Below, one piece after another: positions 13,873 to 29,767 of a stretch of DNA of 64,000 nucleotides. Source of the stretch: an uncultured Dehalococcoidales bacterium (GTDB taxonomy: Bacteria; Chloroflexota; Dehalococcoidia; GIF9; AB-539-J10); NCBI GenBank assembly GCA_964514415.1, contig CAZEQL010000001.1, positions 6,510 through 70,509 of the forward strand, read 5' to 3'. Position numbers and translations under genes: made by a program. How positions within the stretch are numbered: position 1 is the stretch's first letter; every line of letters starts with the position of its first letter. The notes beneath the pieces are model-generated. The model was not told the DNA's origin, did no database searches, and saw nothing but the letters and a program-made list of their open reading frames with translations.

Positions 13873-13993
13873 GTTAATCAACTTTACTTGTGTATATGAA
13901 TATTAATTTGTATAAATAAAGATTACGCATATGCGTTTCGGCAAGAAAATCCGCTCATTAAGTGTAAATTAAGCTATTAACAAGGAGGTAGAA

Positions 13994-15205
13994 ATGAGCA
14001 GCATTAAAAAGAAACTCGGTGTTCTGGGTGGTTTGTTGTTGGTTTTGGCACTTATCTCGGCTATGATATTACCCACATCAGTGCTGGGACAGACAACCTA
14101 TCCTTTGCATCCAACTGACGCTAAGATAGCTAATGCTCTGGGTTATCTGCATGGCCAGCAGACCGCAGAGGGCGACATCGGTGGATTTGGACCCTCAGCC
14201 TGGGTAACCATGGCAATAGCTGCCGCGGGGGAAGATCCTCACGAATGGAAGGTGGGAGATAATCCTTCCATCGTCGATTATCTAGCTACTAATGCGGGTG
14301 GTGCCACTTCGGCTACTGATTACGCCAGAATGATCCTGGCTATAGTGGCCGCTCGTGAAAACCCTACAAACTTTGGCGGCATAGATTTTATGGCTCAATT
14401 AGAAGCAACCTATGATGGTATACAAATTGGCGATCCAACGCTAGTCAATGATGATTTTTGGGGAGTTATAGCCCTTATTGCTGCCGGGAAGGAGCCAAGT
14501 TCGGAGATTATCCAACACAGCGCGACGTTCATTAAAAACTGCCAGCAACCTGATGGCGGTTGGGGTTTCGATGTCGCGGCTTCATGGGGAACAGACATTG
14601 ACGATACTGCTGCGTCTGTTATAGCTTTGGTTGTTGCTGGAGAGGGTCCTGCTTCAACCGCAGTGACGAATGCTCTGGCTTATATCAAATTGAAGCAGAT
14701 GGATAACGGAGGCTTTGAATCCTGGGGTGGTGCAACCAACGCGGATACAGATTCCTGTGCCATTAATGCTATAGTGGCTGCGGGCCAAGACCCAACAAGT
14801 GCAGATTGGACCAAAAATGGCAATACTCCTATTGATGATGTGGTAAGCTTCCAGCAGGGCAATGGACAGTTTAACTGGCAGACTGGTGATCCTGGAGCTT
14901 GGCCATGCCAGACCACTGCTGCTGCCGTACAGGCACTTTTAGGCAAACCATATTTCACCACTGTAACCACAGGCTTAGTCTCCCTTGGAGACAACTTAGT
15001 TATAGCCTGGGGCTATAGGGAAGGCGAGGGTACTGGTGGATGGACAGTTTATGGTCCTTCCTTACCACCTGGAAGCAACACCCTCACACTGCTACACAGA
15101 GGCCGGGGCTACTGGATAAACGTGAGAGAAGAGTGCACCTTAGTTTATGGCAATAACACTTATTACCTGGATGAAGGTTGGACTCTTATTGGCTGGCTTG
15201 ACTAA
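13994..15205 (+). CDS. secreted alpha/alpha-toroid (prenyltransferase / squalene-oxidase-repeat-like) protein
   Basis: Signal peptide followed by at least four repeats of [IV]xxxQQxDGG[WF]...TAxA[IV]xAL (QQTAEGDIGGF, CQQPDGGWGF, KQMDNGGFESW, FQQGNGQFNW), typical of PF00432/PF13243-type toroid repeats. Confidence 0.6.
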   Translation: MSSIKKKLGVLGGLLLVLALISAMILPTSVLGQTTYPLHPTDAKIANALGYLHGQQTAEGDIGGFGPSAWVTMAIAAAGEDPHEWKVGDNPSIVDYLATNAGGATSATDYARMILAIVAARENPTNFGGIDFMAQLEATYDGIQIGDPTLVNDDFWGVIALIAAGKEPSSEIIQHSATFIKNCQQPDGGWGFDVAASWGTDIDDTAASVIALVVAGEGPASTAVTNALAYIKLKQMDNGGFESWGGATNADTDSCAINAIVAAGQDPTSADWTKNGNTPIDDVVSFQQGNGQFNWQTGDPGAWPCQTTAAAVQALLGKPYFTTVTTGLVSLGDNLVIAWGYREGEGTGGWTVYGPSLPPGSNTLTLLHRGRGYWINVREECTLVYGNNTYYLDEGWTLIGWLD

Positions 15206-15290
15206 CTTAGGTGATAGCAAAGCATAAAACTCTAGCACGCCTGATTCAGCAATTCTACACGGCAGGCAGCTTTTATAAGGCTAGATATGG

Positions 15291-17048
15291 ATGAGGCAAG
15301 GTAAATTACCGAAGATATTCGTATTATCGCTTACCGTTACCTTCTTACTTGCCATTATCTTAAGTGGTAGTTACCACCAGCAAACGGCTGCCTCTGCCGC
15401 GCAGGCGCTTTTAAGCAAATTACCATATCCAGCAACGGTTCTCGGAGCACAGGAAGAGGCATCTGTCTATGTAAGAATCGAGGGGCAGGATGAAACCATC
15501 TGGAGGGGAAGCGTAACTGTCTCTGAATCCGCTATTATTGCTGATAACAGCAACAAAACCTATCATCTGTCAGACCCCACCGTGTTGGGCGCTCTAGATG
15601 AGGCTTCCCAGACTGGGGATTTCCCATATTACGTGACTGATACCTATGGGGCGTTGTTCGTAAGCTCTATAGGTGAGGAGGAGAATAAGGGGACGGGGAC
15701 GCGTGCGTGTGGTTGGCAGTACCGCGTAAATTACTATTGCCCCAGCGTCGCTGCTGGCAGATTTATTCTGGGTGAAACAACACCCCCAGAACCCCCACAC
15801 CAAGAAGTGCTGTGGTACTATGGGTCCGGTGGCGACGCACCCCTAAAAATATCGTTCAGCGATACCCGGATAGGTGCAGGTGAGGAATTCACCGCCCGGG
15901 TAGCTCTGTATGATGATGGCAGTCATGATTGGTCACCCTGTGCAGACGCCACGGTTCGTATCAATCATCATAATTACACAACTGGCGCTGATGGGACAGC
16001 GGACATCAGCATAGCTAACGAAGGAAGCTATGCTGTCTTTGCTGAAAAAGATGGGTGTATACGCAGTGATAAGATAGCAGTAACGGTTGTGGCATCCGAA
16101 CCTAGGCATCGTAGCCTGACGGTGGATATAAGTCCCGAAAGCGGTGGAGCGGTTGATTTAAGTCCCAATCAGCCCGCTGAGAGTTATTCCGAAGACAGCG
16201 AAGTTGAGCTAAATGCTATACCAGCTAATGGTTATGCTTTTGGCAGTTGGAGTGGTAGTCTGAGCGGCAGCATCAATCCCACCACTGTAATTATGAGCAG
16301 GAATAAAAAGGTTACCGCTAACTTTGTGCTGTTTGATACTGGTAACCTGACTAATATGGGACTAGTGAAGGCAGGCACTGAGGTGACGTCAATTTCTGTG
16401 GATAGCTGCCCTGCCGAGAACCTGGGCGATGTTCCCCCTGACCTGGATATCCAATCAGCCTATGTTGTAGACTCAGAGGGAAGTGGAAGTTTCACCCTAA
16501 AATTCACTGATGTCTCTAATGCTGAGCACGTAAAATTTTATAAGATTGTTGATGCTAGCTGGACAGAGCTTGAGAATGTGACAACCTCTGGCAGCACTGC
16601 CGAACTTGATATGGAAATTGGTAACTCAATCATTGCACTTATGCTGCCTGCATCAGAGAAGCCAGCTAGTTTTTCAGCCTCCAATCTTAATATCTCGCCA
16701 GAGCAAGTCCAGCCTAACCAGCAGGTGAACATCTCCATCGACATAGCCAATAATGGTGGGAAAACTGGAAGCTACGAAGCTGTTCTTTATATCAACAACC
16801 GGATTGAAGACAGCCAGACGGTGAGCATTTCTCCAGGCTCAACTCAGACTGTGGTATTTGGCATAACCAGGGCAACTCCAGATACTTATGCTGTTTCAAT
16901 GGCAGAAGGTCAAGGGCAATTTACCGTGGCTGGCAGCCAAGCTTCCAGTGGTGGACTAGACACTGTGAGCAAAATAGCTATTGTGGTTATTATAGCGCTT
17001 GTCGCAGGTTTGGCTTTCCTATTTCGTAAAATTAGGCAGAAGGCATAA
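15291..17048 (+). CDS. cell-surface protein: N-terminal DUF4430-like domain + InlB-B-repeat-like domain + CARDB-like domain + C-terminal TM anchor
   Basis: Signal peptide. A W.Y.VN...A....L motif resembles DUF4430. The Y.FGSWSG...VTANF block resembles an InlB B-repeat. The C-terminal ~120 aa are homologous to the C-termini of the 24491 and 26656 proteins. Confidence 0.55.
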   Translation: MRQGKLPKIFVLSLTVTFLLAIILSGSYHQQTAASAAQALLSKLPYPATVLGAQEEASVYVRIEGQDETIWRGSVTVSESAIIADNSNKTYHLSDPTVLGALDEASQTGDFPYYVTDTYGALFVSSIGEEENKGTGTRACGWQYRVNYYCPSVAAGRFILGETTPPEPPHQEVLWYYGSGGDAPLKISFSDTRIGAGEEFTARVALYDDGSHDWSPCADATVRINHHNYTTGADGTADISIANEGSYAVFAEKDGCIRSDKIAVTVVASEPRHRSLTVDISPESGGAVDLSPNQPAESYSEDSEVELNAIPANGYAFGSWSGSLSGSINPTTVIMSRNKKVTANFVLFDTGNLTNMGLVKAGTEVTSISVDSCPAENLGDVPPDLDIQSAYVVDSEGSGSFTLKFTDVSNAEHVKFYKIVDASWTELENVTTSGSTAELDMEIGNSIIALMLPASEKPASFSASNLNISPEQVQPNQQVNISIDIANNGGKTGSYEAVLYINNRIEDSQTVSISPGSTQTVVFGITRATPDTYAVSMAEGQGQFTVAGSQASSGGLDTVSKIAIVVIIALVAGLAFLFRKIRQKA

Positions 17049-17083
17049 TCAGATATAGATAAGAGCTTCCTTCTAGAGGGTGA

Positions 17084-18046
17084 ATGTGGATGAAGCAAGG
17101 TAACTTGCCAAAGATAATTGCACTAGCGCTTGCTTTTTCTTGTCTATTCGTCATCGTCGTATCTGGCTGTCAATCACAGCCCTCGGGTGAGATTGCAGTC
17201 AGGGTGATAGTCAGCCAGAACTTTGGCAGTGAATTGATGCTGGATAAGTCAGTGATAATAAACGATGGCGCTGCCGCTCTGGATGCTATGGAAAAGGTAG
17301 CCACAGTGGAAACGAAGTATGGGGGTGGGTTTGTTGAGGCTATAAACGGGATTCGCTCTCAGTATTCTGGAAGTAAAGTTAAGAAGGACTGGTTTTTCTA
17401 CGTTAATGGCATGTCAGCTAGAGTTGGAGCACTGAGCTATAAGCTCCGTGATGGTGACGTAGAGCATTGGGATTTCCATGATTGGAGTCTTTATGCCTTC
17501 GTTCCTGCCATAATTGGTGATTTCCCCCAGCCATTTTTAGGTGGCTATCAAGGGAAGGTTCCGCCAACCGTAGTAGTGTATGATGAAGGCTTCCAAGATG
17601 CTGCTCAGAATCTAATGAGTAAGCTAAAAGAGCTGGAAGTTGAAAATGTGAGCGTCCAAGCTGCCACTGAACTACCCTCTCAAGATAAGGAACACTCCAA
17701 CTTAATACTTTTGGGCACCAAGGGTTTTGAACCCATATCAGAGCTGAACGAGATTTATAAAAAGCTTGGTTTTTTCATTTACTTTGCCGAAGATAAGGTC
17801 ATAGGATTCGATTTGCAGGGAAATCAAGCGCAATATGGACCAGCCTGTGGGTTGATTCAGGCTACCCAGAATCCCTGGAACCCTAAGGGCACCGGAGCTT
17901 GTGAAAATGTAATCTGGGTGGTGTCGGGGATGAACAATGCTGCAGTTGAGGATGCCGCGGATGCCCTAATTAATCATTATGAAAAATTTCGTTATGCCTG
18001 CGCCGCTGTGATAATTGACGGAGAAGTTATCAAGGTGCCTCAATGA
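17084..18046 (+). CDS. DUF4430 domain lipoprotein
   Basis: Signal peptide with lipobox VVSGC. Hallmark DWFFYVNGMSARVGALSYKLRDGDVEHWDF (WxYxVNG...GA..Y.L.DGD...W). The paralogous start MKQGNLPKII suggests the ATG at 17090 may be the true start. Confidence 0.65.
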   Translation: MWMKQGNLPKIIALALAFSCLFVIVVSGCQSQPSGEIAVRVIVSQNFGSELMLDKSVIINDGAAALDAMEKVATVETKYGGGFVEAINGIRSQYSGSKVKKDWFFYVNGMSARVGALSYKLRDGDVEHWDFHDWSLYAFVPAIIGDFPQPFLGGYQGKVPPTVVVYDEGFQDAAQNLMSKLKELEVENVSVQAATELPSQDKEHSNLILLGTKGFEPISELNEIYKKLGFFIYFAEDKVIGFDLQGNQAQYGPACGLIQATQNPWNPKGTGACENVIWVVSGMNNAAVEDAADALINHYEKFRYACAAVIIDGEVIKVPQ

Positions 18047-18969
18047 TAAGCTATAACTATAGAGATAAAGGTACGGCTATTTATAGGCTAAATCCCTGGA
18101 GCAAGCTAGCTTGGATTGCTAGTGTTTTTGTTCTTGCCTTGCTGTTTAATAACCCTTTCTATCTCCTTTTATTATTTCTGTCAACGCTGCCTCTAATTTT
18201 AGCAGCCAAAGTATGGAGAGAATGGACTTCCTTAATAAAATTCATTGTTTTCCTTTGTGGGTTAATAATAGTCATAAATACCCTGGTGAGCAATCAAGGT
18301 TCGCATGTTCTATATCAAGCACCTTTCGCCATCCCCATAATGGGTGTTCCTACTATAACCTTGGAAGCCATACTTTGTGGTGTAGGGAATAGCATACGGC
18401 TGCTAGCCATAATTTCTGCTTTCACTATCCTTATGTTTACTATCCACCCCGATGACTTAATGCTAGCTATGACAAAAGTGAAGTTGCCTTATAAATCGGT
18501 CCTGGTCACTTCCTTATCCGCCAAATTTGTCCCCACACTAATCGATGATGCACAATGTATCACTGACGTTCAGAGGTCCAGAGGCCTGGAGTTTGAGAAG
18601 GGAGGGCGAATTCAAAGGGCTAAGAATCATATGACTATTGCTATTCCGCTGCTATCCAATTCCTTGGATCGAGCAGTCCAGGTTGCTGAAGCTATGGAAT
18701 CAAGAGCTTTTGGCTCCAGCCAAAACAGGACTTTCTACAAAGAACTGAAGATAACTCGATTCGATGCTATCACTATTGCCTGTGCTCTACTCCCCTGCGC
18801 GGTTGGCATTGTTATGCGTTGCCTGGGGCAAGGAGGGTATGAATATTATCCTGTTTTGCAAGAAGTTAGTTTCACACAACTGGAGACAATTATGCTAATC
18901 AGCTTGATATTCTTGTTAAACATGTTATCTATTTTAGCTCCCTTAAAAAGGAGAATCGACCTTGATTAA
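18043..18969 (+). CDS. ECF transporter transmembrane (T) component, EcfT/CbiQ-like
   Basis: 308 aa, polytopic. Arg-containing coupling-helix motifs QRSRGLEFEKGG and AMESRAFG. Start overlaps the upstream stop. Confidence 0.8.
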   Translation: MISYNYRDKGTAIYRLNPWSKLAWIASVFVLALLFNNPFYLLLLFLSTLPLILAAKVWREWTSLIKFIVFLCGLIIVINTLVSNQGSHVLYQAPFAIPIMGVPTITLEAILCGVGNSIRLLAIISAFTILMFTIHPDDLMLAMTKVKLPYKSVLVTSLSAKFVPTLIDDAQCITDVQRSRGLEFEKGGRIQRAKNHMTIAIPLLSNSLDRAVQVAEAMESRAFGSSQNRTFYKELKITRFDAITIACALLPCAVGIVMRCLGQGGYEYYPVLQEVSFTQLETIMLISLIFLLNMLSILAPLKRRIDLD

Positions 18970-20668
18970 GATAAATAACTTGACTTTTCACTATAGCGAT
19001 ACCGCTAAGCCGGCTCTGCGAAACATAAGTCTTGAGATTCAGGATGGCGAGTTTGTGCTAATTACTGGCCCCTCTGGGGGAGGGAAGTCAAGTCTATGTC
19101 GCTGTCTGAATGGGTTGATACCGCATTTTTATGGAGGTGAGATAAGTGGCAAGGTGGAGGTGGAGAGCCTTGATGTAATGGAGCATCCCACTATGGAGTT
19201 AGCTACCAAGGTGGGAATGGTATTTCAAGACCCAGAGAATCAACTGGTGTCAACGGATGTAGATAGGGAGATCGCTTTTGGCTTGGAAAATCTTGGCTTT
19301 CCCCGGGAACTAATGGCTAAAAGAGTAGAAGAAGCATTGGATACAGTGGGTATTGCTGGATTGCGCCATCGAACTATAACTGAGCTCTCTGGCGGAGAAA
19401 AACAGCGGGTGGCTATAGCCTCAGTCATAGCGTTGTATCCTAATATCTTGGTGCTAGATGAGCCTACCTCCGAATTAGACCCTAAAGGCGCTGAAGAGGT
19501 GCTTAATGTGGTAGAGCGACTGAACGATGAGTTAGGCATTACGGTGATACTGGTAGAACACAGGTTAGACAGGGTGGTGCAACATGTTGATAGAATACTT
19601 GTGTTGGATGATGGCATGATTATGGCTGATGGGGTTCCGCGATCAATTCTCAGCGATAGTAGGGTTGCGTTAAGTGGTGTCGGCATGCCTCCAGTAATCA
19701 AACTTACCCAGGGGCTTAAACAAAGAGGCATCAGAATTGATAACACTCCTCTAACAGTTAAAGAAGGCAGGACAGCTTTAGCCAAAACCCTTCAACCCCA
19801 CACCTTTCTGACCCTGAACGAAGTGAAGAGGAAAAATCTGTCTCCTCAGCCCATTAATAATACTAAAAGGGATTACTCTCAGCCGCTAATTGACGTGAAG
19901 GGACTATGGCACGCTTACCCCAACGATTTTGTTGCTCTGAAAAACATAAGTGTGAAAGTATGTGAAGGGGAATTTATAGCTGTTATGGGCAGGAATGCCT
20001 CTGGAAAGACAACCTTGGTCAAGCACTTTAACGGGCTGTTAAAGCCAACAAAGGGCAGCGTGCTGGTGAATGGCATTGATACTAGAGAAACAACTATAGC
20101 TGAGCTAGCTAAGAAAGTAGGCTATGTTTTTCAGAATCCTAATGAGCATCTATTCGCCGATACTGTTGAAGAGGAGATTGCCTTTACTCTAAGGAATTTG
20201 GGGTTTTCAAACAAGGAAATGGGTCTGATGATTGACCAGGTGCTGGAGAGATTTAAACTTACACAATACCGGCATCGATACCCACGGTCTTTAAGCGGCG
20301 GAGAAAAACAAAGGGTAGCTCTGGCTTCCATTCTTGTAGCTCGGCCTAAGATAATCATTTTGGATGAGCCTACCAGGGGAATGGAGTATAAGTTGAAGGT
20401 TGAGTTGTTGAGCTTTTTAGATGAGTACAGAAAAGAAGGCAAGGCGGTGATTTTGGTTACTCAAGATGTGGAGACAGTAGCTGAGTATGGCGACAGAGTG
20501 ATATTACTCAGCGAGGGGGGAGTTGTGGTAGATGGGAATAAGCGAGAGGTGTTATCGCAAGCATTGCTATTCTCTCCCCAGATAAATCGCCTGGCTCAAT
20601 CGCTCAAAAGCTATGGTATCCCCGGCGATGTGTTAACTGCTAATGAAGCGTTAGGGATAATGGCATGA
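18962..20668 (+). CDS. ECF transporter fused duplicated ATPase (EcfA-EcfA')
   Basis: 568 aa with two complete ABC cassettes (GPSGGGKSS / LSGGEKQRV / VLDEP and GRNASGKTT / LSGGEKQRV / ILDEP). TTG start with a GGAG RBS. Confidence 0.85.
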   Translation: MIKINNLTFHYSDTAKPALRNISLEIQDGEFVLITGPSGGGKSSLCRCLNGLIPHFYGGEISGKVEVESLDVMEHPTMELATKVGMVFQDPENQLVSTDVDREIAFGLENLGFPRELMAKRVEEALDTVGIAGLRHRTITELSGGEKQRVAIASVIALYPNILVLDEPTSELDPKGAEEVLNVVERLNDELGITVILVEHRLDRVVQHVDRILVLDDGMIMADGVPRSILSDSRVALSGVGMPPVIKLTQGLKQRGIRIDNTPLTVKEGRTALAKTLQPHTFLTLNEVKRKNLSPQPINNTKRDYSQPLIDVKGLWHAYPNDFVALKNISVKVCEGEFIAVMGRNASGKTTLVKHFNGLLKPTKGSVLVNGIDTRETTIAELAKKVGYVFQNPNEHLFADTVEEEIAFTLRNLGFSNKEMGLMIDQVLERFKLTQYRHRYPRSLSGGEKQRVALASILVARPKIIILDEPTRGMEYKLKVELLSFLDEYRKEGKAVILVTQDVETVAEYGDRVILLSEGGVVVDGNKREVLSQALLFSPQINRLAQSLKSYGIPGDVLTANEALGIMA

Positions 20669-21363
20669 AGAAGAGCTACATCGTCCTGGCATTGCTACTG
20701 GCTTTAAGTATAGGTTTTGCCATTTCCCCTGCTTTGTTTCCTTCGTTCAATGCTTTGGCAAACTGGGGCTTAGTAGCAATTCTGCTAGCCGTTCTGATCA
20801 TATTAGCCTTTTTCTTCAAGTTTGAATCAGTCGCTCTGGGCTCTAAAGAGATAGCGTTAGTTTCCATGTTGGCCACTACATCGGCAGTTCTAAGAATTCC
20901 ATTTGCTGCTATTCCCAGCTTTCAACCTTGCACTTTTTTGATAATTTGCTCTGGATATGTCTTTGGGCCCATATCTGGTTTCATGGTAGGAGCGATGACG
21001 CCACTCATCTCCAATTTTTTCTTAGGGCAGGGTCCCTGGACGTTATATCAAATGCTTGCCTGGGGATTGATAGGGTATGGGGCTGCTTATCTCAGGCGAT
21101 TCAATCTGGACAGGAAAGGACTGATTGTTATTGGTGTTATTTGTGGTTTCGTTTTTGGCTTCCTCACGAATATCTACTTCTGGCTATTCTTTACTTATCC
21201 CCTTACACTCAGAACTTTAATCCTTGTCCAAATTAGCAGTCTTTGGTTTGACATCTCTCATGCCGCAGGAAATGCCATCTTTCTCGGACTCTTTGGCACA
21301 AAGACTATTGGTGTGTTGGAGAGATACAAGAAGCGCTTCAACTGGAAGTTATCATCAAGTTGA
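20665..21363 (+). CDS. putative ECF transporter substrate-specific (S) component
   Basis: 232-aa small hydrophobic protein with about 6 predicted TM segments. Its start is translationally coupled to the EcfAA' stop (overlapping ATGA). Family not recognised. Confidence 0.5.
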   Translation: MKKSYIVLALLLALSIGFAISPALFPSFNALANWGLVAILLAVLIILAFFFKFESVALGSKEIALVSMLATTSAVLRIPFAAIPSFQPCTFLIICSGYVFGPISGFMVGAMTPLISNFFLGQGPWTLYQMLAWGLIGYGAAYLRRFNLDRKGLIVIGVICGFVFGFLTNIYFWLFFTYPLTLRTLILVQISSLWFDISHAAGNAIFLGLFGTKTIGVLERYKKRFNWKLSSS

Positions 21364-21571
21364 GATATTTGGAGCTTTTGGGCTACGAGACGCAATATGA
21401 GACGCTAAAAGAGGAATAGTGTGACGATGCGGAGTGAATCGCATCCACACAGAAGGAATAGATTCAGGTCTACACAGGAAATTCTAAAGGTACAGCTATG
21501 GACACTTCGGATCTGACTTTTCGGGGATGCCACCTCACCTCATCGTTTGGGCTATGGTAAACCGGCCAAAG

Positions 21572-22426
21572 ATGATTGTAACTAAGGAACTCACCAAAAT
21601 ATACGGTGGAATCAGAGCAGTTGAGACCTTAGATCTGGAAGTGCATACGGGGGAGATGTTTGGATTTCTGGGTCCCAATGGCGCTGGCAAGACCACGACT
21701 ATCCGCATCTTGACTACTTTAACCAAGCCATCTTCAGGACATGCCTGGATAAACAGCTTCGACGTGGTGAAGAACCCGAGACAGGTAAGAAAGGAGTTCG
21801 GAATAGTGCAGCAGCACTTGAGCCTAGATTGGGAGCTGACCGTATGGGAGATTTTGGAATTGCACGCTCGGCTGCATCACCTAAAGCTAAATGAGCGGCG
21901 GCAGCGCATCGCCGAGTTGCTTGACTATATAGGACTGACCAAGCAAACTAATCAACTGGTCAGGGAGCTTTCAGAAGGGATGAAAAGGCGGGTGATGATT
22001 GCCCGCGCTCTCATACACCACCCCAAAGTGCTCTTCCTCGATGAGCCCACAGCAGGGGTGGATGCCCAGAGCCGACGCCATGTCTGGGATATGATACGCG
22101 GCATGAACTCAGCTGGCACCACCGTTTTTCTCACTACCCATTACATCGAGGAGGCAGAGGCTCTCTGCCAGCGAGTGGGGATAATCCACCAGGGGCAATT
22201 GATCGCCCTAGGCAGCCCCCTGGAGCTCCGGCTGCGCCTAGGGCTGGTCACCGTAGAGACACTCTCTAACAATAAAAACACCCACTATCACTACTTCCCT
22301 AACAGAGCTGCAGCGACAGGCTACGTTCAGAGCCTACCCTCCGACGTTAAGACCATCATCGTGCGGGAATCGAATCTAGAAGATGTCTTCGTAGAGCTGA
22401 CCGGGCGAAAGGTAGGTGACGAATAA
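21572..22426 (+). CDS. ABC transporter ATP-binding protein (ABC-2 / DrrA-like exporter type)
   Basis: Walker A GPNGAGKTT, signature LSEGMKRRV, Walker B FLDEP. The ATG at 21572 is preferred over the upstream extension in the ORF track. Confidence 0.8.
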   Translation: MIVTKELTKIYGGIRAVETLDLEVHTGEMFGFLGPNGAGKTTTIRILTTLTKPSSGHAWINSFDVVKNPRQVRKEFGIVQQHLSLDWELTVWEILELHARLHHLKLNERRQRIAELLDYIGLTKQTNQLVRELSEGMKRRVMIARALIHHPKVLFLDEPTAGVDAQSRRHVWDMIRGMNSAGTTVFLTTHYIEEAEALCQRVGIIHQGQLIALGSPLELRLRLGLVTVETLSNNKNTHYHYFPNRAAATGYVQSLPSDVKTIIVRESNLEDVFVELTGRKVGDE

Positions 22427-22427
22427 C

Positions 22428-23162
22428 ATGGATTTCTACTCCATTCTCTGGACAGATTTAAGGATTTTACGGCGCCAATGGTGGCGGCTTCTTGTCACCA
22501 CCATGATTAGCCCCCTGCTGTACTTAATAGCCTTTGGCTGGGGGTTAGGGCGGGGAATCAATATCGAGGGTACAAATTACCTCGAGTTCGTGATACCAGG
22601 CATAGTCGCCCTTACCGCCATGACCATCAGCTTCAATGGTGCCGGAATGAAGCTCAACGTGGATCGCCTTTATTGCAAGAGCTTCGACGAATGCTTGATG
22701 TCTCCCGTTAGTCACCTTTCGTTAATCCTGGGCAAGGCGTCAATCGGCGTGGTGCGTGGTCTCATTAGCTCCATAGCCTTCCTGGTAGTGGCTTATCTGC
22801 TATCACCCACCTTAACCTTCAGCCCTCTTTTCGTGGTAACTCTGGTGCTCACCTGCTTCATCTTCGCCTTTATGGGAGTCCTCATTGCGCTACTGGTGAA
22901 GGCACATGAAGACATGGCTACCTTCAGCAGCCTGATATTACTGCCGATGACCTTTCTCTGTGGCACCTTCTTCTCCCTGAGCCAATTGCCCGAGGGACTA
23001 AAGGTCGCCCTGTACATCCTTCCCCTGACACATTCCAGCCTGTGCTTGCGAGCAGCATCTCTGGGCCAGCCCTTCCCCTGGCTGTCACTGCTGGCCATCG
23101 TGGGTTTTGGAATAGCCTTTCTTCTGGGGTGTGTAATAGCTCTGAGGAGAGCGAGTATATAG
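22428..23162 (+). CDS. ABC-2 family transporter permease
   Basis: About 245 aa, 6 TM segments, immediately downstream of the ATPase. ATG at 22428. Confidence 0.7.
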   Translation: MDFYSILWTDLRILRRQWWRLLVTTMISPLLYLIAFGWGLGRGINIEGTNYLEFVIPGIVALTAMTISFNGAGMKLNVDRLYCKSFDECLMSPVSHLSLILGKASIGVVRGLISSIAFLVVAYLLSPTLTFSPLFVVTLVLTCFIFAFMGVLIALLVKAHEDMATFSSLILLPMTFLCGTFFSLSQLPEGLKVALYILPLTHSSLCLRAASLGQPFPWLSLLAIVGFGIAFLLGCVIALRRASI

Positions 23163-23255
23163 GTTTAATATGAAAGCTTATTTACTATCATTTTGCGCCC
23201 TCTGTTTCTTGTCATCGTGAAGGCTGCAAGTGTCATGGCGGTGAATTAGCAAAAT

Positions 23256-23285
23256 TTGACATGGCAAAAACATATGTTTTATAAT
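23256..23285 (+). promoter_or_regulatory. consensus sigma70-type promoter: TTGACA (23256-23261), 18-nt spacer, TATAAT (23280-23285)
   Basis: Perfect hexamers about 130 nt upstream of the BtuF-like start. The leader is homologous to the leader of gene 13994. Confidence 0.5.
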
Positions 23286-23413
23286 CTCTCTTAATCAAGT
23301 AAGCTTGCTTTTAAGCAAATAAACTTGTATACCTGAGAGGGAGAGAGGCATATGAACTAGCTGAAGGAATCCGCTGCAGTCTAAGCAACTACTGACAAGG
23401 AGGTAGAGTAGAA

Positions 23414-24478
23414 ATGAATAGCATTAAAAAGAAATTTGGTATATGGGGTAGTCTACTGCTTGCGTTGGCGCTGGTGGTGGCAATGTCGCTTCCTGCAACC
23501 AGTCTGGCTACCACTTATCCCATAACCCTCACCGACGACTTAGGCCGGGAGGTCACCATTGAGGCATTACCACAGAGAATAGTGTCTCTAGCCCCTTCCA
23601 ACACCGAGATACTATTTGCCCTGGGCTTGGGGGATAGAGTGGTGGGAGTGACAGACTTCTGCGACTACCCACCGGAGGCTCAGGAGAAGGAAAGCATAGG
23701 AGGTCCCTGGACACCGGATGTAGAAAAGCTAGTTGCTCTTCAGCCTGACTTTGTACTGGCTGCAGCTATCAATCCTATCGATGTTATTAACACCCTGGAG
23801 GGATTGGGGGTTACGGTATTCGGCGTAGAAGCCACCGATTTAGATGACATACTTCATGATATCAGGACGGTAGGGCAAATAACCGACAAGGAAGCGGGGG
23901 CAGATGCGATTACAACTGACATGCAAAACAAGATAGATACAATAACCGCAGAGACAGCGGGGCTTCCCCAGAATGAAAAGCCCAGGACGTTCCACATTTG
24001 CTATCACGAGCCCATATGGACTGCAGGCAATGGCACCTTCATCCATGATTTGATTGAAAAGGCAGGGGGAGTGAATATTTTTGCCGACATTGATGACTAT
24101 CAGTCAGTCGACATCGAGGCGGTAATCGGGCGCAATCCCGAGGTAATCATAGTAACGGCGATGGGTGGCACGGCATCCGGAACATGGGACTGGGTACTTA
24201 CCGAGCCCCGGCTTGCGGGTGTATCAGCCCGTCAAAATGGAAGAGCGTACTATGTGGAATCTAACTGGGTTGAGCGCCCAGGACCACGAATAGTGCTTGG
24301 CTTGGAGGCGGTGGCTAAATACATCCATCCCGAGCTTTTCTTCGACCCCTGGGATTACGATGAAGATGGCAATGGAGACATCAACAAGGCTGAAGCCATC
24401 GAATCCATCCAGGACTACTTTAACGGTTTGATAGCTAAGGCGCAGGCGATAGAAGTCGTGACACTCTACTTTGGATAA
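23414..24478 (+). CDS. BtuF-like periplasmic corrinoid/iron-siderophore binding protein (cluster 8 binding protein) with C-terminal EF-hand-like extension
   Basis: Signal peptide. TroA-like binding fold (LAPSNTEILFALG, DFVLAA). C-terminal DEDGNGDINKAE matches the canonical 12-residue EF-hand/dockerin Ca loop (D1, D3, N5, G6, I8, E12). Confidence 0.7.
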   Translation: MNSIKKKFGIWGSLLLALALVVAMSLPATSLATTYPITLTDDLGREVTIEALPQRIVSLAPSNTEILFALGLGDRVVGVTDFCDYPPEAQEKESIGGPWTPDVEKLVALQPDFVLAAAINPIDVINTLEGLGVTVFGVEATDLDDILHDIRTVGQITDKEAGADAITTDMQNKIDTITAETAGLPQNEKPRTFHICYHEPIWTAGNGTFIHDLIEKAGGVNIFADIDDYQSVDIEAVIGRNPEVIIVTAMGGTASGTWDWVLTEPRLAGVSARQNGRAYYVESNWVERPGPRIVLGLEAVAKYIHPELFFDPWDYDEDGNGDINKAEAIESIQDYFNGLIAKAQAIEVVTLYFG

Positions 24479-24490
24479 TTAGGGGAAAAT

Positions 24491-26497
24491 ATGAGAAGGA
24501 AATTATTATCGAGAGGGTTCTTTTCCACCCTGGCGGCAGTTGTGCTGATAGCAGTTATAATCGCACCAGTACTGGCGGCGCCAGCAACCGCTACCAGGAC
24601 ACTCCCCACGTCGGTAGAATCAGTAGCCGAGTTCAATGTCGCCATTGAGGCTTCAGGCTGTGGTTTTGCCGGTCAGGTGGTGGAAACGCTGCCTGATGGC
24701 TTTACCTATGTCGGCTGCGATTCGGAAGATGTCGGAGTTGAGCAAACAGGCAACACAATCAAGTTCACCTTTATGGGTGATTCGGTGAGCTTTATCTATA
24801 CCGCGAGAGCGCCAACGGTCGAGACTACCACTGCTTATACCTTTCATCAGGGCATAGTTAAGGATGAGAATCACATTGAATATCCCATTCCGGACAGCTC
24901 AATAATTGTAACTGCACCTGGTCCCGCGACCTGTACTTTAACCATGGCGGTGAGCGGGAATGGCTCGACCACCCCCGCGGTGGGCGGTCACACTTATGAC
25001 GAAGGAACCGTAGTAGATATCAGCGCCACGGCAAACTCAGGCTGGCGATTTGACCATTGGTCCAGCAATGTTGCCAACCCTGCTTCCTCATCCACCACGA
25101 TAACCATGGACAGCGATAAAACGGTCACCGCCTATTTCACCCTCTTTACCGGGGCGTCGGGCACCAGGACACTTCCGACATTGGTGACATCAGGAGCCGA
25201 GTTCAATGTCGCCATTGAGGCTTCAGGCTGTGGCGACTTCGGTCAGGTAGTGGAAACACTACCCGATGGATTTACCTATGCCGGCTGTGATTCGGAAGAC
25301 GTTGGAGTTGAGCAAACAGGCAACACAATCAAGCTCTCTTTCTTCGATTCGGCAAGCTTTATTTACAAGGTTAAGGCGCCAAGAGTTGCCGCTACCACTA
25401 CCTATACCTTCCAGGGCGAAATCCTGGATGAGGACAGGATTTCCTACCCCATTCAAGATGATGATATAACAGTACTGGTAACATCAGGCACCAGGATTCT
25501 CCCGGCATCGGTGACATCGGGAGACAAGTTCGCTATCACTATTGAGGCTTTGGGATGTGGCGACTTCGGTCAGGTGGTGGAGATCTTGCCCGACGGGTTT
25601 ACCTACGTGAGCAGTTCTCTCCCAACAGGCCAGGTTGAACAGACAGGCAGTATGGTCAAGTTCTCTTTCTTCGATTCAGCAAGCTTTACCTACAAAGTTA
25701 CGGCACCAAGAGTTGCCGCTACCACTACCTATACCTTCCAGGGCGAAATCCTGGATGAGGACAGGATTTCCTACCTCATTGAAAATGATGACATAACAGT
25801 AGTAAATGAGCCACCTGTTGCCAATGCCGGCACTGACCAAACGGTTTATATCCATCCTCCCGCCACCACTGCCAAGGTAACACTCGCTAGCTCTGGTTCT
25901 TATGACCCAGAAGGAGACTCTCTTACCTACGAATGGACATGGAACAGCACTACTGTTACTGAGGGCAATCCAACGATCGAGCTTCCTCTGGGAACTACCA
26001 CAATCACCCTGGTGGTAAACGACGGCAACTCGGATTCATCTCCCGATACCGTAAATATCATCGTACTGGAGTTGAGGAAGTCCAATGAATTATCTAAGAA
26101 GCCGGCAAACTTTGTGGCTTCTTATCTGCATATCTCACCAGAGCAAGTTCTACCCAATCAGCAAGTTGAAATCTCAATCAATATAGGCAATCATGGCGGG
26201 GAGAAAGGTAGCCATACCACTTCCTTGTACATCAACAGGCAGTTAGAAGACAGATGGGTAGTTGGTGTTTCCCCTGGCTCCTGCCAGAATGTGGTGTTCA
26301 GGTTAAGTAAAACAACACCAGGAACTTATCAAGTATCTTTAGAAGGACACCAAGGTCAGTTCGTTGTGCTAGCTCCACTCACAACTACCTATCCCTCTGG
26401 TGGCTTGGGCACAGGTGGCATAATAACCATTATAGTTGTATCTCTAGTGCTCGTTGCAGCAATAGTGTTTCTAATCGCTAGAACCAGAAGAGAGTAA
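24491..26497 (+). CDS. cell-surface protein: 3 tandem ~110-aa novel domains + InlB-B-repeat-like domain + PKD-like domain + CARDB-like domain + C-terminal TM anchor
   Basis: Signal peptide. Thrice-repeated (A/G)TRTLP...FNVAIEASGCG(F/D)(A/F)GQVVE(T/I)LPDGFTY... block. PANAGTDQT...SYDPEGDSLTYEWTW resembles PKD. C-terminus is paralogous to 15291 and 26656. Confidence 0.6.
   Translation: MRRKLLSRGFFSTLAAVVLIAVIIAPVLAAPATATRTLPTSVESVAEFNVAIEASGCGFAGQVVETLPDGFTYVGCDSEDVGVEQTGNTIKFTFMGDSVSFIYTARAPTVETTTAYTFHQGIVKDENHIEYPIPDSSIIVTAPGPATCTLTMAVSGNGSTTPAVGGHTYDEGTVVDISATANSGWRFDHWSSNVANPASSSTTITMDSDKTVTAYFTLFTGASGTRTLPTLVTSGAEFNVAIEASGCGDFGQVVETLPDGFTYAGCDSEDVGVEQTGNTIKLSFFDSASFIYKVKAPRVAATTTYTFQGEILDEDRISYPIQDDDITVLVTSGTRILPASVTSGDKFAITIEALGCGDFGQVVEILPDGFTYVSSSLPTGQVEQTGSMVKFSFFDSASFTYKVTAPRVAATTTYTFQGEILDEDRISYLIENDDITVVNEPPVANAGTDQTVYIHPPATTAKVTLASSGSYDPEGDSLTYEWTWNSTTVTEGNPTIELPLGTTTITLVVNDGNSDSSPDTVNIIVLELRKSNELSKKPANFVASYLHISPEQVLPNQQVEISINIGNHGGEKGSHTTSLYINRQLEDRWVVGVSPGSCQNVVFRLSKTTPGTYQVSLEGHQGQFVVLAPLTTTYPSGGLGTGGIITIIVVSLVLVAAIVFLIARTRRE
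25150..25823 (+). repeat. two tandem ~337-bp intragenic direct repeats (about 95% identical over at least 105 bp, e.g. 25338-25442 vs 25675-25779)
   Basis: Direct reading: near-identical stretches ...gcaagctttatttacaaggttaaggcgccaagagttgccgctaccactacctataccttccagggcgaaatcctggatgaggacaggatttcctacc... recur with a period of 337 nt inside CDS 24491..26497. Confidence 0.7.
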
Positions 26498-26655
26498 CGT
26501 AGAGTGTCCAAAGCGCAGATTAAAAAGAGCAGCTAGTAATATTTGCGTCAGGTGGAGGTGGTACTAATACTATGCCACCTCCACAAAGTGATAACCAAGG
26601 CACCAGCAACATAATTTGTGATGCCGTATTCTGGATGATAAGGGTGAGAGGAAAA

Positions 26656-27951
26656 ATGCTATCGAGAAGGGTCATTCCTTCAATAGCAGCAATTATACTG
26701 ATAGCAGTTATAGCTGCCCCGGCCCTGGCGTCGCCAGCGACAGCCACGCGGACCCTTCCGTCATCGGTAGCTTCAGGAGCCACTTTCAACGTCGCCATTG
26801 AGGCTTCAGGCTGCGGTTTTGCTGGTCAGGTAGAGGAGACCTTGCCTGATGGGTTTACCTATCTCAGTTGCACCCCTGATGATATTGGAACCCAAAAATC
26901 AGGCAACACAGTCAAGTTCACCTTCCTCGGGAATTCAGCAAGTTTTACCTATAGTGCCAAGGCACCAACAATCGACACTATCACCACCTATACCTTCCAC
27001 GGCGTAGTCAAGGATGAGGATAAGAATGAATATCCTGTCGATGATGATGAGATAACTGTGACCATGGGTGGGCCTCCCCCAGAAACTTACATTCTGACTA
27101 TGGCGGTGGATGGAAGTGGCTCAACCACCCCTTCAGTGGGCAACCATATCTATGATGTCGGAGACGTAGTGAGCATCAGCGCCACACCAGCCTCAGACTG
27201 GCAATTTGACCACTGGTCAAGTAACATTGCCGACCCTGATTCTCCATCTACCACGGTAACCATGGATAGAGATAAAACTATCACCGCTCATTTCAGCCCA
27301 GGCAGCAGCAGTGCGAACGACCTCATAACCTATACCTTAACAGTAACCTATGAACCAAGCGATGGCGGAAGTGTTATCCTCAGCCCTTCGGAATTAGGCA
27401 GCCATTATGAGAAGGACACTTCTATCAAGCTAACCGTTATCCCTTCTGAGGGTCATATCTTTTCTTGCTGGGGCGGTGATCTCACCGGAAACGCCAATCC
27501 CGTTACCATAGCTATGGACTCTGACAAGAATATTACCGCCAATTTTGCATCGCCCACGCGGGGAAACCTGGCCAGTTTTGCAATCTCCCCCCTCAATATC
27601 TCGCCAGAGCAAGTTCAGCCTAACCAGACAGTCAGCATCTCCGCCAGTATAACCAACAATGGTGAGAAAACTGGAACTTATGAAGCCCTCCTTTATGTCA
27701 ATGAGCAAGTGGAGGACAGTCAACTGGTGGAGATTTCACCTGGTTCATCCCAGAATGTGGTCTTTAGTGTAACCAAGGCAACCCCGGGAGTTTATACCGC
27801 CTTACTGGGAGAGCAGCAAGGGGAATTCACCGTGGCGAATAACGCTTCTAATAGGAATCTCGACACCAGTAGCACGATAGCTATTGTGGTTATCATCGTA
27901 CTTGTTGTAGCTCTGGTATTCATATTCCGTAGAATTAGGAGAGGAACGTAA
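26656..27951 (+). CDS. cell-surface protein paralog: 1 novel ~110-aa domain + two InlB-B-repeat-like domains + CARDB-like domain + C-terminal TM anchor
   Basis: The ATG at 26656 gives the signal peptide MLSRRVIPSIAAIILIAVIAAPALA, aligning with the 24491 protein. The same domain order follows and the C-terminus is homologous. Confidence 0.6.
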   Translation: MLSRRVIPSIAAIILIAVIAAPALASPATATRTLPSSVASGATFNVAIEASGCGFAGQVEETLPDGFTYLSCTPDDIGTQKSGNTVKFTFLGNSASFTYSAKAPTIDTITTYTFHGVVKDEDKNEYPVDDDEITVTMGGPPPETYILTMAVDGSGSTTPSVGNHIYDVGDVVSISATPASDWQFDHWSSNIADPDSPSTTVTMDRDKTITAHFSPGSSSANDLITYTLTVTYEPSDGGSVILSPSELGSHYEKDTSIKLTVIPSEGHIFSCWGGDLTGNANPVTIAMDSDKNITANFASPTRGNLASFAISPLNISPEQVQPNQTVSISASITNNGEKTGTYEALLYVNEQVEDSQLVEISPGSSQNVVFSVTKATPGVYTALLGEQQGEFTVANNASNRNLDTSSTIAIVVIIVLVVALVFIFRRIRRGT

Positions 27952-28165
27952 CTACGTACAAATTAAAGGGAGTATCAAAAAAGGCAGCCTTTATTCAATC
28001 AACAAAGTTGCTTAACAACCCGTCCGATTCTAAGCAAAGCGAGAAATTAGGACCCCTCGTCACTGTTCGGAAGACAGACTAAATAATCCTCAATCAGTTG
28101 AACTTGTTTATAGTAAGCTTAGGTTGTAATATTATGGATATTTGGCAAGCTCGAGAGGTAGTCAA

Positions 28166-28810
28166 ATGAAAGTTTTCGCTTCATGGAGTGGAGGGAAAGA
28201 ATGCGCTTTGGCAACCTATAGAGCAATTTCACAAGGGTATGAAGTCTTATATTTGGTTAACTTTATCTCTGAAGATGGGGAGAGATCAAGGTCTCATGGG
28301 ATTAAGGCCGGTGTTTTAGCTTCGCAAGCAGAAGCTATTGGCATCCCTCTGATTCAGGTGAAAACGTCCTGGGAAGAATATGAGGAGAACTTTAAGAAGG
28401 TCGTGAGAGAGCTCAAGCATAAGGGGATAGAAGGAGGAGTTTTTGGCGATATAGACTTAAAAGAGCATAGGGAGTGGGTAGAGAGGGTCTGTAATGAGCT
28501 AGGGATAAAGGCGTTTCTGCCCCTTTGGGGAACAAAGGCAGAAGAATTAATTGGTGAATTTCTTAAGCTAGAATTCAAAGCTATGGTGGTAGCCACTAGA
28601 TTAGAAGAGAGCTTATTGGGAAAAGTTTTGGATGAAACTCTTGTGAGTCAGGTTACCAAACTCGGCTCCCATCCCTGTGGAGAAGGAGGAGAATACCATA
28701 CTTTTGTCACTGCAGGACCCATCTTTAAGAAGACACTCAAGATTACTCAGGGTGCGAAAGAAAAGAGAGATAATATGTGGTTTCTGGAAATCTCAGCTAA
28801 GTTGCAATGA
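28166..28810 (+). CDS. PP-loop ATP pyrophosphatase of the DUF71 / Dph6 (MJ0570) family
   Basis: N-terminal SWSGGKEC PP-loop and the family-typical EGGEYHT motif. The start is placed at the ATG at 28166 with its RBS; the track starts at an upstream TTG. Confidence 0.65.
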   Translation: MKVFASWSGGKECALATYRAISQGYEVLYLVNFISEDGERSRSHGIKAGVLASQAEAIGIPLIQVKTSWEEYEENFKKVVRELKHKGIEGGVFGDIDLKEHREWVERVCNELGIKAFLPLWGTKAEELIGEFLKLEFKAMVVATRLEESLLGKVLDETLVSQVTKLGSHPCGEGGEYHTFVTAGPIFKKTLKITQGAKEKRDNMWFLEISAKLQ

Positions 28811-28896
28811 GAGAGGCGCTCCATTGCTCTACGTTCCCGAGCAAATCGCAGTGCTTTGGAAATTCTTCGTTATGCTCAGAATAAAGGAGTGAACTT

Positions 28897-29661
28897 GTGA
28901 ATATCTATCACATATCTTATTCATTGGACCATTATGGGACTAGAGAAGTGACTCTTTCCTTCCAGGGATGTAATTTTGAGTGCATCGGTTGTCTTCGAAA
29001 AAGGAGCAAGTATGATATCTATGCCGATAAAGAAGAGCGCATTGATATGAGCTTAGAGGGGATTATCCAAAAGGTAAATGAACTTAAGCCACACCGAGTT
29101 TATTTTGGGGGCTATGAACCTACTCTCGACCCTGATCTAATAAGTATAATCAAGACACTTTCAAGAGCTGATCGTTATCTATGTCTGTGTACCAACGGAA
29201 GTAAGTTAGATGAAGATTATGTAAAGGAATTAAGGAGAGCGGGGATAAATCAAGTTTTCCTCAGTGTGAAAGCTTTCGATCCAGGAAAACATATCTACTA
29301 CACAAAAGTCTCTAATGAGCTAAGTTTAAGAGCAATAAGCCTTCTTTCCAAAATGGAAGACGAGCATTTTATGCTTCATGTGGAGACAATCCTAATTCCA
29401 GGTGTAAACGATCCCGTGGATATTGAGAAGCTGGCAACATTTATCTCAGAGATAGACCCTACGATCCCACTCTGGATAGATCCCTGGGTTCCTACCTCAG
29501 AGGAATTTCGAGAACCAACAAAACAGGAGCTAATAGAAGCAGTCTCCAGGGCAATGAAGCATCTTTATGTCGTTTCTTACCTGCCTTTACACTCCGAAAT
29601 AAGTGAGATACGAAAAACAAGGAAGAAGACAGAGTTTGTGAACTGCCTGGCGAGAGAGTGA
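28897..29661 (+). CDS. small radical SAM protein (activase / QueE-like type)
   Basis: CNFECIGC (CxxxCxxC) 25 aa from the N-terminus. 254 aa. GTG start with an AAGGAG RBS 7 nt upstream. Confidence 0.7.
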   Translation: MNIYHISYSLDHYGTREVTLSFQGCNFECIGCLRKRSKYDIYADKEERIDMSLEGIIQKVNELKPHRVYFGGYEPTLDPDLISIIKTLSRADRYLCLCTNGSKLDEDYVKELRRAGINQVFLSVKAFDPGKHIYYTKVSNELSLRAISLLSKMEDEHFMLHVETILIPGVNDPVDIEKLATFISEIDPTIPLWIDPWVPTSEEFREPTKQELIEAVSRAMKHLYVVSYLPLHSEISEIRKTRKKTEFVNCLARE

Positions 29662-29666
29662 TTAAA

Positions 29667-29753: not shown

Positions 29754-29767
29754 TGCGGGTATATTAA

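Follow-up and report, generated by a model that had tools for sequence, protein, structure and literature searches.

Three exported proteins encoded on one strand of a 64-kb stretch of Dehalococcoidales DNA (contig CAZEQL010000001.1; 47% G+C; hereafter the window) end in a common C-terminal unit. We consider that this unit is probably a type-I membrane anchor that stays uncleaved and includes an Ig-like stalk close to the membrane, used as a lineage-specific cassette. The open reading frames (ORFs) of the three proteins, p15291, p24491 and p26656, lie among genes for corrinoid uptake and salvage (Table 1). An earlier note on the same DNA had described the shared ending as a possible surface anchoring or sorting module; nothing that we found suggests a new protein-sorting machine.

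The common C-terminal unit and its family

In all three proteins, the unit consists of a CARDB-like domain, a linker of 7-11 residues, a GL(G/D)T motif, a hydrophobic helix of 18-20 residues and a tail with Arg and Lys. The C-termini aligned over ~130 residues with 52-62% identity and 51 invariant columns. By BLASTP, p15291 and p24491 matched over 134 residues of this region (48.5% identity, E = 9e-32), and outside it they had only a weaker match in the InlB-repeat region (29%, E = 1e-7). These comparisons bear out the common C-terminus claimed in the earlier note. The linker, which had been called Gly/Ser-rich, is modestly so but short, and of the four C-termini that had been grouped together, three could be aligned; the fourth, from the protein encoded at 54277, was excluded and is described below.

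The CARDB model of Pfam (PF07705) matched each protein above its gathering cut-off of 22.7 bits (p15291, 24.9; p24491, 25.5; p26656, 29.0). An AlphaFold2 model of p26656 (36-sequence alignment; mean predicted local distance difference test score, pLDDT, 84) contained a signal helix at residues 6-20, four beta-sandwich domains and a C-terminal helix at residues 404-429, with the CARDB region modeled as a seven-strand Ig-like beta-sandwich (residues 308-393, pLDDT about 90). In Foldseek searches, this domain resembled the Fn3-like domains of glycoside hydrolase family 3 enzymes (root-mean-square deviation 2.5-2.6 A), with a match to that of BglX, a glycoside hydrolase (2.6 A, 117 columns). A fold search with the entire multidomain model returned nothing beyond generic Ig-string matches, and a sequence search of the PDB gave no match for p15291 and only PKD domains for p24491.

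Sec signal peptides with n, h and c regions and AxA-type sites could be read from the sequences of all three proteins. A hydrophobicity scan of all window ORFs of at least 80 residues found their three tails; the only further hits were two polytopic transporter proteins, each with its final helix. With a signal peptide, a single C-terminal helix and a positively charged tail, the three proteins are predicted to be type-I membrane proteins. For p26656, the start is most likely at 26656 (MLSRR...), the position taken in the earlier note, rather than at the upstream ATG at 26572.

The N-termini had been described as different and ligand-facing. The first description holds for p15291, but p24491 and p26656 are paralogous over their full length (65% identity in the first 215 residues, E = 4e-84 by BLASTP), and the N-terminal domains of these two have stalk-type folds (CLIPPER/DUF11-like, InlB B-repeat and PKD) with no recognisable binding domain among them. 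At the DNA level, the three modules are 59-70% identical, and their longest exact runs are 11, 13 and 20 nucleotides. The proposal that the DNA of the C-termini offers substrates for homologous recombination is therefore weak. A recent duplication was seen inside p24491, between its Cys-domain repeats 2 and 3 (25307-25474 vs 25634-25801), where the DNA is 89-92% identical over 127-168 nucleotides, far above the mutual identity of the C-terminal modules. An identical copy of p24491 (P0008) occurs on an ENA metagenome contig with unchanged gene order.

To define the family, a profile of the three C-termini was run exhaustively against 1.84 billion cluster representatives. Such a search was required because a word-indexed search with the C-terminal 136 residues alone gave no matches; an anchor-only profile searched in the same way gave nothing but short fragments (31-74 residues). 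The exhaustive search detected 6074 cluster representatives (E <= 1e-3), of which 291 remained at a cut-off of E <= 1e-30. Among the best 150 representatives, the transmembrane helix and basic tail formed the C-terminal end in 101, and G-[GP]-L-[GDS]-T-G-G-I stood at the start of the helix in 44. Carriers of this motif typically end in ...(Y/F/W)F-x-GGLGTGGIIAIVV...LRRE-COOH. The canonical motif is found in p24491, and the LDT variant of p15291 and p26656 is common to their orthologs.

The module is attached to many different passengers and sits on more than 40 distinct architectures clustered at 50% identity. A Pfam scan of 47 motif-bearing carriers found PKD (19), InlB B-repeat (12), right-handed beta-helix (9), NosD (7), BACON_2 (7), cohesin (4) and VWA (3) domains, with a CARDB match (PF07705) in 43 of the 47. 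Other top matches were tandem arrays of the same CARDB subfamily with up to 19 copies, some of which (P0016, P0022 and P0050) end in PGF-CTERM-type tails. Conversely, the anchor directly follows an InlB repeat without a CARDB domain in P0181, P0188, P0189, P0202 and L007:5147-6430. Because the anchor thus occurs without CARDB and CARDB without this anchor, the two parts are separable, although usually found together. Proteins with only a signal peptide, CARDB and the anchor also exist (L002:9902-10405, 167 residues; P0071, 144 residues; P0076, 172 residues). Anchor subtypes track orthologous groups across genomes; judged from their sequences, the subtypes show vertical inheritance, without homogenisation inside individual genomes.

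In a scan of GTDB with a 7-sequence alignment and one genome per species, all 12 confirmed loci among at most 80 pattern matches were from Dehalococcoidia or Dehalococcoidales metagenome-assembled genomes (MAGs), and the few named matches in protein databases were likewise from Dehalococcoidia. Among these matches the module is restricted to Dehalococcoidia as far as sampled, which agrees with the setting suspected in the earlier note. The profile search and the range of passengers likewise support its view of a recurrent surface-anchoring module. Based on these sequence comparisons, the module is a lineage-specific anchoring cassette absent from curated families, and it qualifies as CARDB plus a predicted type-I membrane anchor.

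Membrane anchor or sorting signal

We compared whole proteins and isolated tails with NCBIfam and Pfam at permissive E-values, using the haloarchaeal PGF-CTERM tail of P0016 as a positive control (43.4 bits on PGF_CTERM). The sole matches near or above a cut-off were to TIGR01167 (LPXTG_anchor, cut-off 15.9 bits), on which the p15291 tail reached 16.2 bits and the tail of an ortholog 18.7 bits. These alignments span model positions 6/7-34, covering the helix and basic tail but not the pentapeptide. None of the three proteins has an LPXTG-type pentapeptide before the helix (the motifs are GGLDTV, GGLGTG and RNLDTS), and none matched PF00746. The PGF-, PEP-, GlyGly- and GVDTG-CTERM models gave no match for tails of the window type (type A), and the best other scores were below cut-off (PEF-CTERM, 12.2 bits vs 23; PVV-CTERM, 8.3 vs 27). 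The scans thus agree with the reported lack of LPXTG, PEP-CTERM and PGF-CTERM motifs, and the module can be called uncharacterised in that it is not covered by any curated family of sorting signals in Pfam or NCBIfam.

The earlier note had also left room for a dedicated sorting of these proteins. Searches of the window ORFs of at least 150 residues detected no member of the sortase, exosortase, rhomboid or CPBP families, and no such enzyme was present among about 20 neighbours of module genes in other loci (flanks <=10 kb). Those neighbours encode major facilitator superfamily, SBP_bac_5, Peptidase_MA_2, LemA, Peptidase_M48 and DUF6602 proteins; the M48/LemA pair adjoins a module-only gene in L002, a single occurrence. 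The literature that we searched contained nothing relevant on Dehalococcoidia together with CARDB, sortase or archaeosortase, or on GVDTG.

In archaea and some bacteria, the anchoring of S-layer and surface proteins by transmembrane helices is well established (bioRxiv 10.1101/2024.05.28.596244). The three proteins resemble such proteins of archaea and of monoderms (e.g., PS2 of C. glutamicum) in having a Sec signal peptide, strings of Ig-like domains and one C-terminal helix with a basic tail, in cells without an outer membrane. They differ in that the helix is part of a cassette with a specific CARDB subfamily and the GGL(G/D)TGG motif, reused on dozens of passengers within one class. The cassette also resembles PGF-CTERM, processed by archaeosortase A in haloarchaea, and PEP-, GlyGly-, MYXO- and GVDTG-CTERM, which are likewise tripartite C-termini on many surface proteins of one lineage. 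One can ask whether GGL(G/D)TGG, the helix and the basic tail form a true sorting signal that is cleaved by a sortase-, archaeosortase- or rhombosortase-like enzyme before attachment to lipid or the S-layer. This would account for a motif placed exactly at the start of the helix, after a variable linker and before a short fixed tail that often ends in RRE-COOH, and for the many unrelated passengers with several paralogs per locus. It would also fit the occurrence of the same CARDB subfamily directly before PGF-CTERM-type tails (P0016, P0022 and P0050) and a second motif-helix-basic tail (IGGxGYFPSxxGLLxPW...RRRKA) that substitutes on orthologous passengers. As in LPXTG anchors (TIGR01167, PF00746), a hydrophobic segment and basic tail are preceded by T-G, a loose likeness shared with GVDTG tails, and some tails score 16-19 bits on TIGR01167. 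However, the L-P/A-x-T-G pentapeptide is missing, no curated sorting-domain model aligns to the motif, which differs from those of the PGF-CTERM group, and neither the window ORFs searched nor the inspected neighbours contain a sortase gene or other candidate enzyme. The subtypes are inherited vertically with orthologous groups, as would be expected of ordinary anchors.

The conservation of the motif is also informative. Among 28 full-length p26656 orthologs picked by overall similarity, the mean pairwise identity of the motif was 0.40, comparable to that of the linker (0.38) and the signal peptide (0.40); the values for the helix and the folded domains were 0.56 and 0.53-0.68, respectively. 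Several true orthologs carry degenerate motifs such as NRNLDTSS, GWPDNGTT, FPRDPGVI and SRLGITDT. On balance, these sequence patterns are better explained by a stop-transfer anchor whose juxtamembrane cap is conserved than by a motif that must be cleaved, and we regard a cleaved sorting signal as unlikely. Less likely again is the idea that CARDB and the helix have a role of their own as a membrane-proximal lattice or spacer under the S-layer, possibly forming helix-helix or CARDB-CARDB oligomers, with the N-terminal domains secondary. The module-only proteins, a transmembrane segment as conserved as the folded domains (0.56-0.63) and the small-xxx-small pattern (GxxxG in GGLGTGG) are in its favor, but the short proteins may in part be fragments, of which many were seen, or wrongly called ORFs, helix identity is inflated by an alphabet of I, V, L and A only, and most carriers are large and multidomain; we consider it quite improbable. 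A recent whole-gene duplication within this genome, with no portable module, has hardly any credibility left: it could draw on the full-length paralogy of p24491 and p26656 and on the intragenic duplication, but it is already largely refuted by the profile search and the passenger diversity (more than 40 distinct architectures). Moreover, p15291 has only the InlB repeat and the C-terminal module in common with the other two, orthologs of each of the three occur in other MAGs with the same anchor subtype, and the DNA identity among the modules argues for old divergence.

Several observations nevertheless count against an uncleaved anchor. In a motif-selected alignment (A4), identity was 85% in the motif columns, 66% in CARDB, 63% in the helix and 28% in the linker; the motif figure is biased upward because the alignment was selected for the motif. 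The majority GGLGTGGII...RRE subtype is strikingly uniform, with fixed spacing to a very short C-terminus, and the order of motif, helix and basic cluster is the layout of processed sorting signals too. The search for a processing enzyme covered 64 kb of this genome, and both the topology and the lack of cleavage are predictions.

Corrinoid uptake genes and other means of surface retention

The genes around the three proteins form what, by gene content, is an island for corrinoid uptake and salvage. The features of the island and of the three proteins are collected in Table 1.

Table 1. Window coordinates of the three proteins, their parts and the neighbouring transport and salvage genes. ECF, energy-coupling factor; AF2, AlphaFold2.
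Feature	Position	Strand	Size or residues	Composition, remarks or basis
Operon holding p15291	13994-21363	+		Pfam, NCBIfam
Secreted alpha/alpha-toroid protein	13994-15205	+		prenyltransferase/squalene-cyclase-like
p15291	15291-17048	+	585 aa	signal peptide without lipobox, DUF4430-like, CarboxypepD_reg-like, InlB B-repeat, unassigned beta region, CARDB-like stalk, predicted transmembrane anchor; ORF list
p15291 CARDB-like membrane-proximal domain	16665-16928	+	459-546	Pfam, alignment
p15291 predicted anchor	16929-17045	+		linker AGSQASSG, motif GLDTVS, helix KIAIVVIIALVAGLAFLF, tail RKIRQKA
DUF4430 lipoprotein	17084-18046	+		lipobox VSGC
ECF transporter T component	18043-18969	+		CbiQ-like
ECF fused ATPase	18962-20668	+		A-A
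ECF S component	20665-21363	+		
BtuF-like substrate-binding protein	23414-24478	+		Peripla_BP_2 E 1e-37 (Pfam), BtuF E 2e-35 (NCBIfam)
BtuF tail	about 24344-24475			also in the BtuF-like proteins encoded at L001:7727-8797, L007:7927-9027, L010:7063-8133
p24491	24491-26497	+	668 aa	start 13 nt past btuF-like stop codon; signal peptide, CLIPPER/DUF11-like Cys domain, InlB B-repeat, 2 further CLIPPER-like domains, PKD, CARDB-like stalk, predicted transmembrane anchor
p24491 Cys domain, copy 1	24584-24919	+		CLIPPER/DUF11-like; alignment A10, AF2, PDB fold match
p24491 further Cys-domain copies	25154-25480, 25481-25798	+		
p24491 CARDB-like domain	26105-26368	+	539-626	Pfam
p24491 predicted anchor	26369-26494	+		linker LAPLTTTYPSG, canonical motif GLGTGG, helix IITIIVVSLVLVAAIVFLIA, tail RTRRE
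p26656	26656-27951	+	431 aa (459 aa if from ATG 26572)	signal peptide, single CLIPPER-like Cys domain, 2 InlB B-repeats, CARDB-like stalk, predicted transmembrane anchor; AF2 model m947017ebdebc; 27 full-length orthologs
p26656 Cys domain	26731-27066	+		
p26656 CARDB-like domain	27571-27834	+	306-393	Pfam, AF2
p26656 predicted anchor	27835-27948	+		linker ANNASNR, degenerate motif NLDTSS, helix TIAIVVIIVLVVALVFIF, tail RRIRRGT
Corrinoid transport and salvage genes past p26656	28142-39045	+		diphthamide-synthase-like, radical SAM, BtuC, CbiZ, BtuD, CbiB, CobD, CobQ, CobA, CobT, CobS, CobU

The gene order of the p15291 operon is kept in three related loci (L008, L009 and L013), and orthologs of p15291 occupy the matching operon position in two of them (L008:1470-3140 and L009:2902-4560). 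Both arrangements, that of the BtuF-like gene (L001, L007 and L010) and that of the p15291 operon (L008 and L009), recur in Dehalococcoidia MAGs with transporter genes 70-84% identical and surface proteins 46-57% identical. A metagenome scan for the GCGxxGQVxE loop of the Cys domain described below identified 65 loci, 48 of them with upstream sequence, and a BtuF-like gene preceded the first Cys-domain gene in 32 of these 48. The start of a Cys-domain ORF lay within 400 nucleotides of a BtuF-like stop codon in 31 of 56 cases. The conserved synteny with BtuF/BtuCD and with the ECF/DUF4430/toroid operon suggests a putative surface apparatus for corrinoid scavenging. Two points weaken this suggestion. 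The binding of corrinoids by the carrier domains is hypothetical, and no cobalamin riboswitch turned up in Rfam searches, which covered the full window at the gathering threshold and 13000-29900 at E <= 1. The stretches free of riboswitches include 13750-13994 and 23162-23414, despite about 25 kb of corrinoid genes. Directly upstream of the island, at 10926-13750, lie the genes of a class III anaerobic ribonucleotide reductase (NrdD) and its activase; the pair is likewise next to the BtuF operon in L001.

The Cys-containing domain of p24491 and p26656 gave an AlphaFold2 model with a pLDDT of 97.6. Its top fold match in the PDB was the CLIPPER/DUF11 domain 9ifr (TM-score 0.73, E = 2e-5; CnaA-like fold), followed by an archaeal cohesin. 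The Pfam DUF11 model (PF01345) scored 17.0 bits (E = 0.0077), under its gathering cut-off of 24.6 bits, and some homologs have a precomputed PF01345 match. CLIPPER/DUF11 domains form the stalks of fibrillar adhesins and contain a Lys-Asn isopeptide with a catalytic Asp, although some DUF11 domains have no such bond (PMC12617251). The Cys domain shares with them the fold and the occurrence as tandem repeats in a surface protein, but it differs in lacking the conserved Lys/Asn/Asp triad, in its invariant GCGxxGQVxE loop and in its tight gene linkage to BtuF. In alignment A10, the invariant residues are R7, P10, C28, G29, G32, Q33, E36, L38, P39 and D95; there is no invariant Lys or Asn, and the first strand has an invariant Arg. 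One might assume that the invariant extracellular Cys ligates cobalt as in the B12 transporter BtuM, which is pure speculation on our part.

For p15291, Pfam reported Flg_new_2 (E = 5e-12) and, just under the gathering cut-off of 23.8 bits, DUF4430 (PF14478; 22.0 bits, E = 2e-4). Its homolog P0191 has a precomputed PF14478 match, and for the neighbouring lipoprotein at 17084 the score is 54.5 bits. The signal peptide of this lipoprotein (17084-17215) is 37% identical to that of p15291 (15291-15420) over 43 residues. At the position of the lipobox VSGC, p15291 has LSGS, so that the lipobox Cys is lost. This pattern suggests that p15291 may be a duplicate of the DUF4430 lipoprotein in which the lipid anchor was swapped for the transmembrane cassette.

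The type-A anchor is one of several ways in which these surface proteins end. Among 59 Cys-domain proteins with complete C-termini, 16 had the type-A anchor, 9 a type-B anchor and 4 another transmembrane helix; the remainder had "AEAxxxVxxYF" tails (8), dockerin-like ends (6) or none of these (16). The type-B tail (PPAIGG[DEK][GA]YFPSxxGLLxPWxAL...RRRKA) replaces the CARDB and GGLGTGG cassette on orthologous Cys-domain proteins and was found in P0159, P0170, P0177, P0179, P0183, P0197 and P0203 and in L014, L017, L018, L028, L029 and L034-L036. One type-B tail scored 23.6 bits on TIGR03065 (cut-off 21.35), over the helix part only.

The BtuF proteins encoded next to Cys-domain genes have a Sec signal peptide, no lipobox and a conserved C-terminal tail of ~45 residues (DPWDYDEDGNGDINKAEAIESIQDYFNGLIAKAQAIEVVTLYFG) that shows the pattern of a canonical EF-hand Ca loop. 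Related loci also encode another BtuF paralog, with the lipobox but without the tail. The EF-hand-like tail has no match to Dockerin_1 of Pfam. From its sequence it may be a docking module. Docking to the adjacent Cys-domain proteins has become less likely, since some Cys-domain proteins elsewhere themselves end in this type of tail (e.g., L049, L050, L054 and P0209). The ortholog of the toroid protein in L009 (L009:1630-2769) ends in a canonical two-repeat dockerin, and the window copy ends in a different module of ~70 residues (...GYWINV...GWTLIGWLD). In L012, a protein with cohesin, BACON and CARDB domains and the GGLGTGG anchor is encoded beside another cohesin protein and a pair of proteins whose tails are of the Dockerin_1 type (genes at 257-1531, 1857-3791, 3906-6062 and 6119-7414). 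From its domain content, this locus looks like a membrane-anchored cohesin-dockerin system in Dehalococcoidia. It resembles the anchoring scaffoldins of cellulosomes (cohesin with an SLH or LPXTG anchor, and dockerin partners), as do the L009 dockerin and the cohesin domains of 4 of the 47 carriers. Unlike scaffoldins, p15291, p24491 and p26656 lack a Pfam cohesin domain, their anchor is a predicted transmembrane helix, and the setting is corrinoid transport and not polysaccharide degradation. Because these C-termini interchange on the same passengers and in the same loci, surface retention in this lineage appears to be modular, comprising lipoboxes, two transmembrane cassettes and docking tails.

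A gene pair farther along the window encodes a secreted protein of 196 residues with no family match (53687-54277) and a protein of 183 residues with an Ig-like fn3_5/FixG_C domain, a transmembrane helix and an RRKTR tail (54277-54828). The latter had been counted in the earlier note as ending in the same way as the three proteins. The helix and basic tail are present, but its best E-values against the three were 0.2-2.7, giving no detectable homology (E >= 0.2), and its Ig-like domain is of another type; it also has a weak "choice-of-anchor T" match. The pair is adjoined by an extracytoplasmic function sigma factor gene (55045-55644) and a subtilase gene (56253-57275, minus strand), and all of these are unrelated to the CARDB module.

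Proposed arrangement and significance

If the shared C-terminus is an uncleaved anchor, the proteins would be exported via Sec by their N-terminal signal peptides, which would then be cleaved. The C-terminal helix would act as a stop-transfer anchor, leaving the Arg/Lys tail in the cytoplasm. In a cell without an outer membrane, the CARDB-like sandwich and the remaining Ig-like domains, which add up to five to seven, would serve as a stalk that lifts the N-terminal parts off the membrane. An Ig-like domain is ~4 nm long, and by our own estimate the stalk might reach roughly 20-28 nm and present the N-terminal domains near the S-layer. The GGL(G/D)TGG motif, which travels with the helix, may provide flexibility next to the membrane or cap the helix, and neither cleavage nor lipid transfer would be needed. 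As a whole, the cassette would be shuffled among many passengers and be interchangeable with the second transmembrane type, the dockerins and the EF-hand-like tail. Cultured Dehalococcoides, among them the reference species of the class, D. mccartyi, reportedly lack peptidoglycan, and an archaeal-style envelope has been reported for cultured Dehalococcoides.

In this arrangement, the three carriers may be accessory parts of corrinoid uptake, acting in the capture of corrinoids or in their hand-over to BtuF-BtuCD and the ECF transporter. For p15291, such a role is proposed because its DUF4430-like domain, of the transcobalamin beta-domain type by Pfam/InterPro assignment, is encoded in an ECF-transporter operon; for p24491 and p26656, because their Cys-containing CLIPPER-like domain is genetically coupled to BtuF-BtuCD. 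Accessory extracellular proteins within B12 transporter operons are also seen in the BtuG and BtuH lipoproteins of Bacteroides. Likewise, the secreted toroid and the DUF4430 proteins that flank the ECF transporter recall transcobalamin and intrinsic factor, which consist of an alpha/alpha-toroid and a beta domain. In contrast to those systems, the proteins described here, which are putative corrinoid binders, have a CLIPPER-like Cys fold, a transmembrane cassette and a monoderm envelope.

A bolder combination is that both tails signal an undiscovered Dehalococcoidia sorting system, a counterpart of PGF-CTERM and archaeosortase in wall-less, S-layer-bearing cells, and that the island proteins at the same time form a new corrinoid-capture apparatus. 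The parts of such an apparatus would be the BtuF-coupled Cys domain and a split transcobalamin-like pair, the secreted toroid and the anchored DUF4430 protein, feeding the ECF transporter. We consider this joint possibility doubtful, and we continue to prefer an uncleaved anchor.

To our knowledge, how Dehalococcoidia retain extracellular proteins is essentially undescribed. The module, together with the dockerin-like and second transmembrane tails, provides a searchable signature for the surface proteome of this class. The conserved coupling of anchored or docked surface proteins with corrinoid transporters in Dehalococcoidia is likewise undescribed in the literature that we searched, and we regard it as the part most worth pursuing. 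Dehalococcoides and its relatives rely on corrinoids supplied by the community. The synteny reported here yields candidates that can be tested for a role in the initial stage of corrinoid scavenging, outside the cell, with bearing on bioremediation consortia and on the ecology of B12 in sediments.

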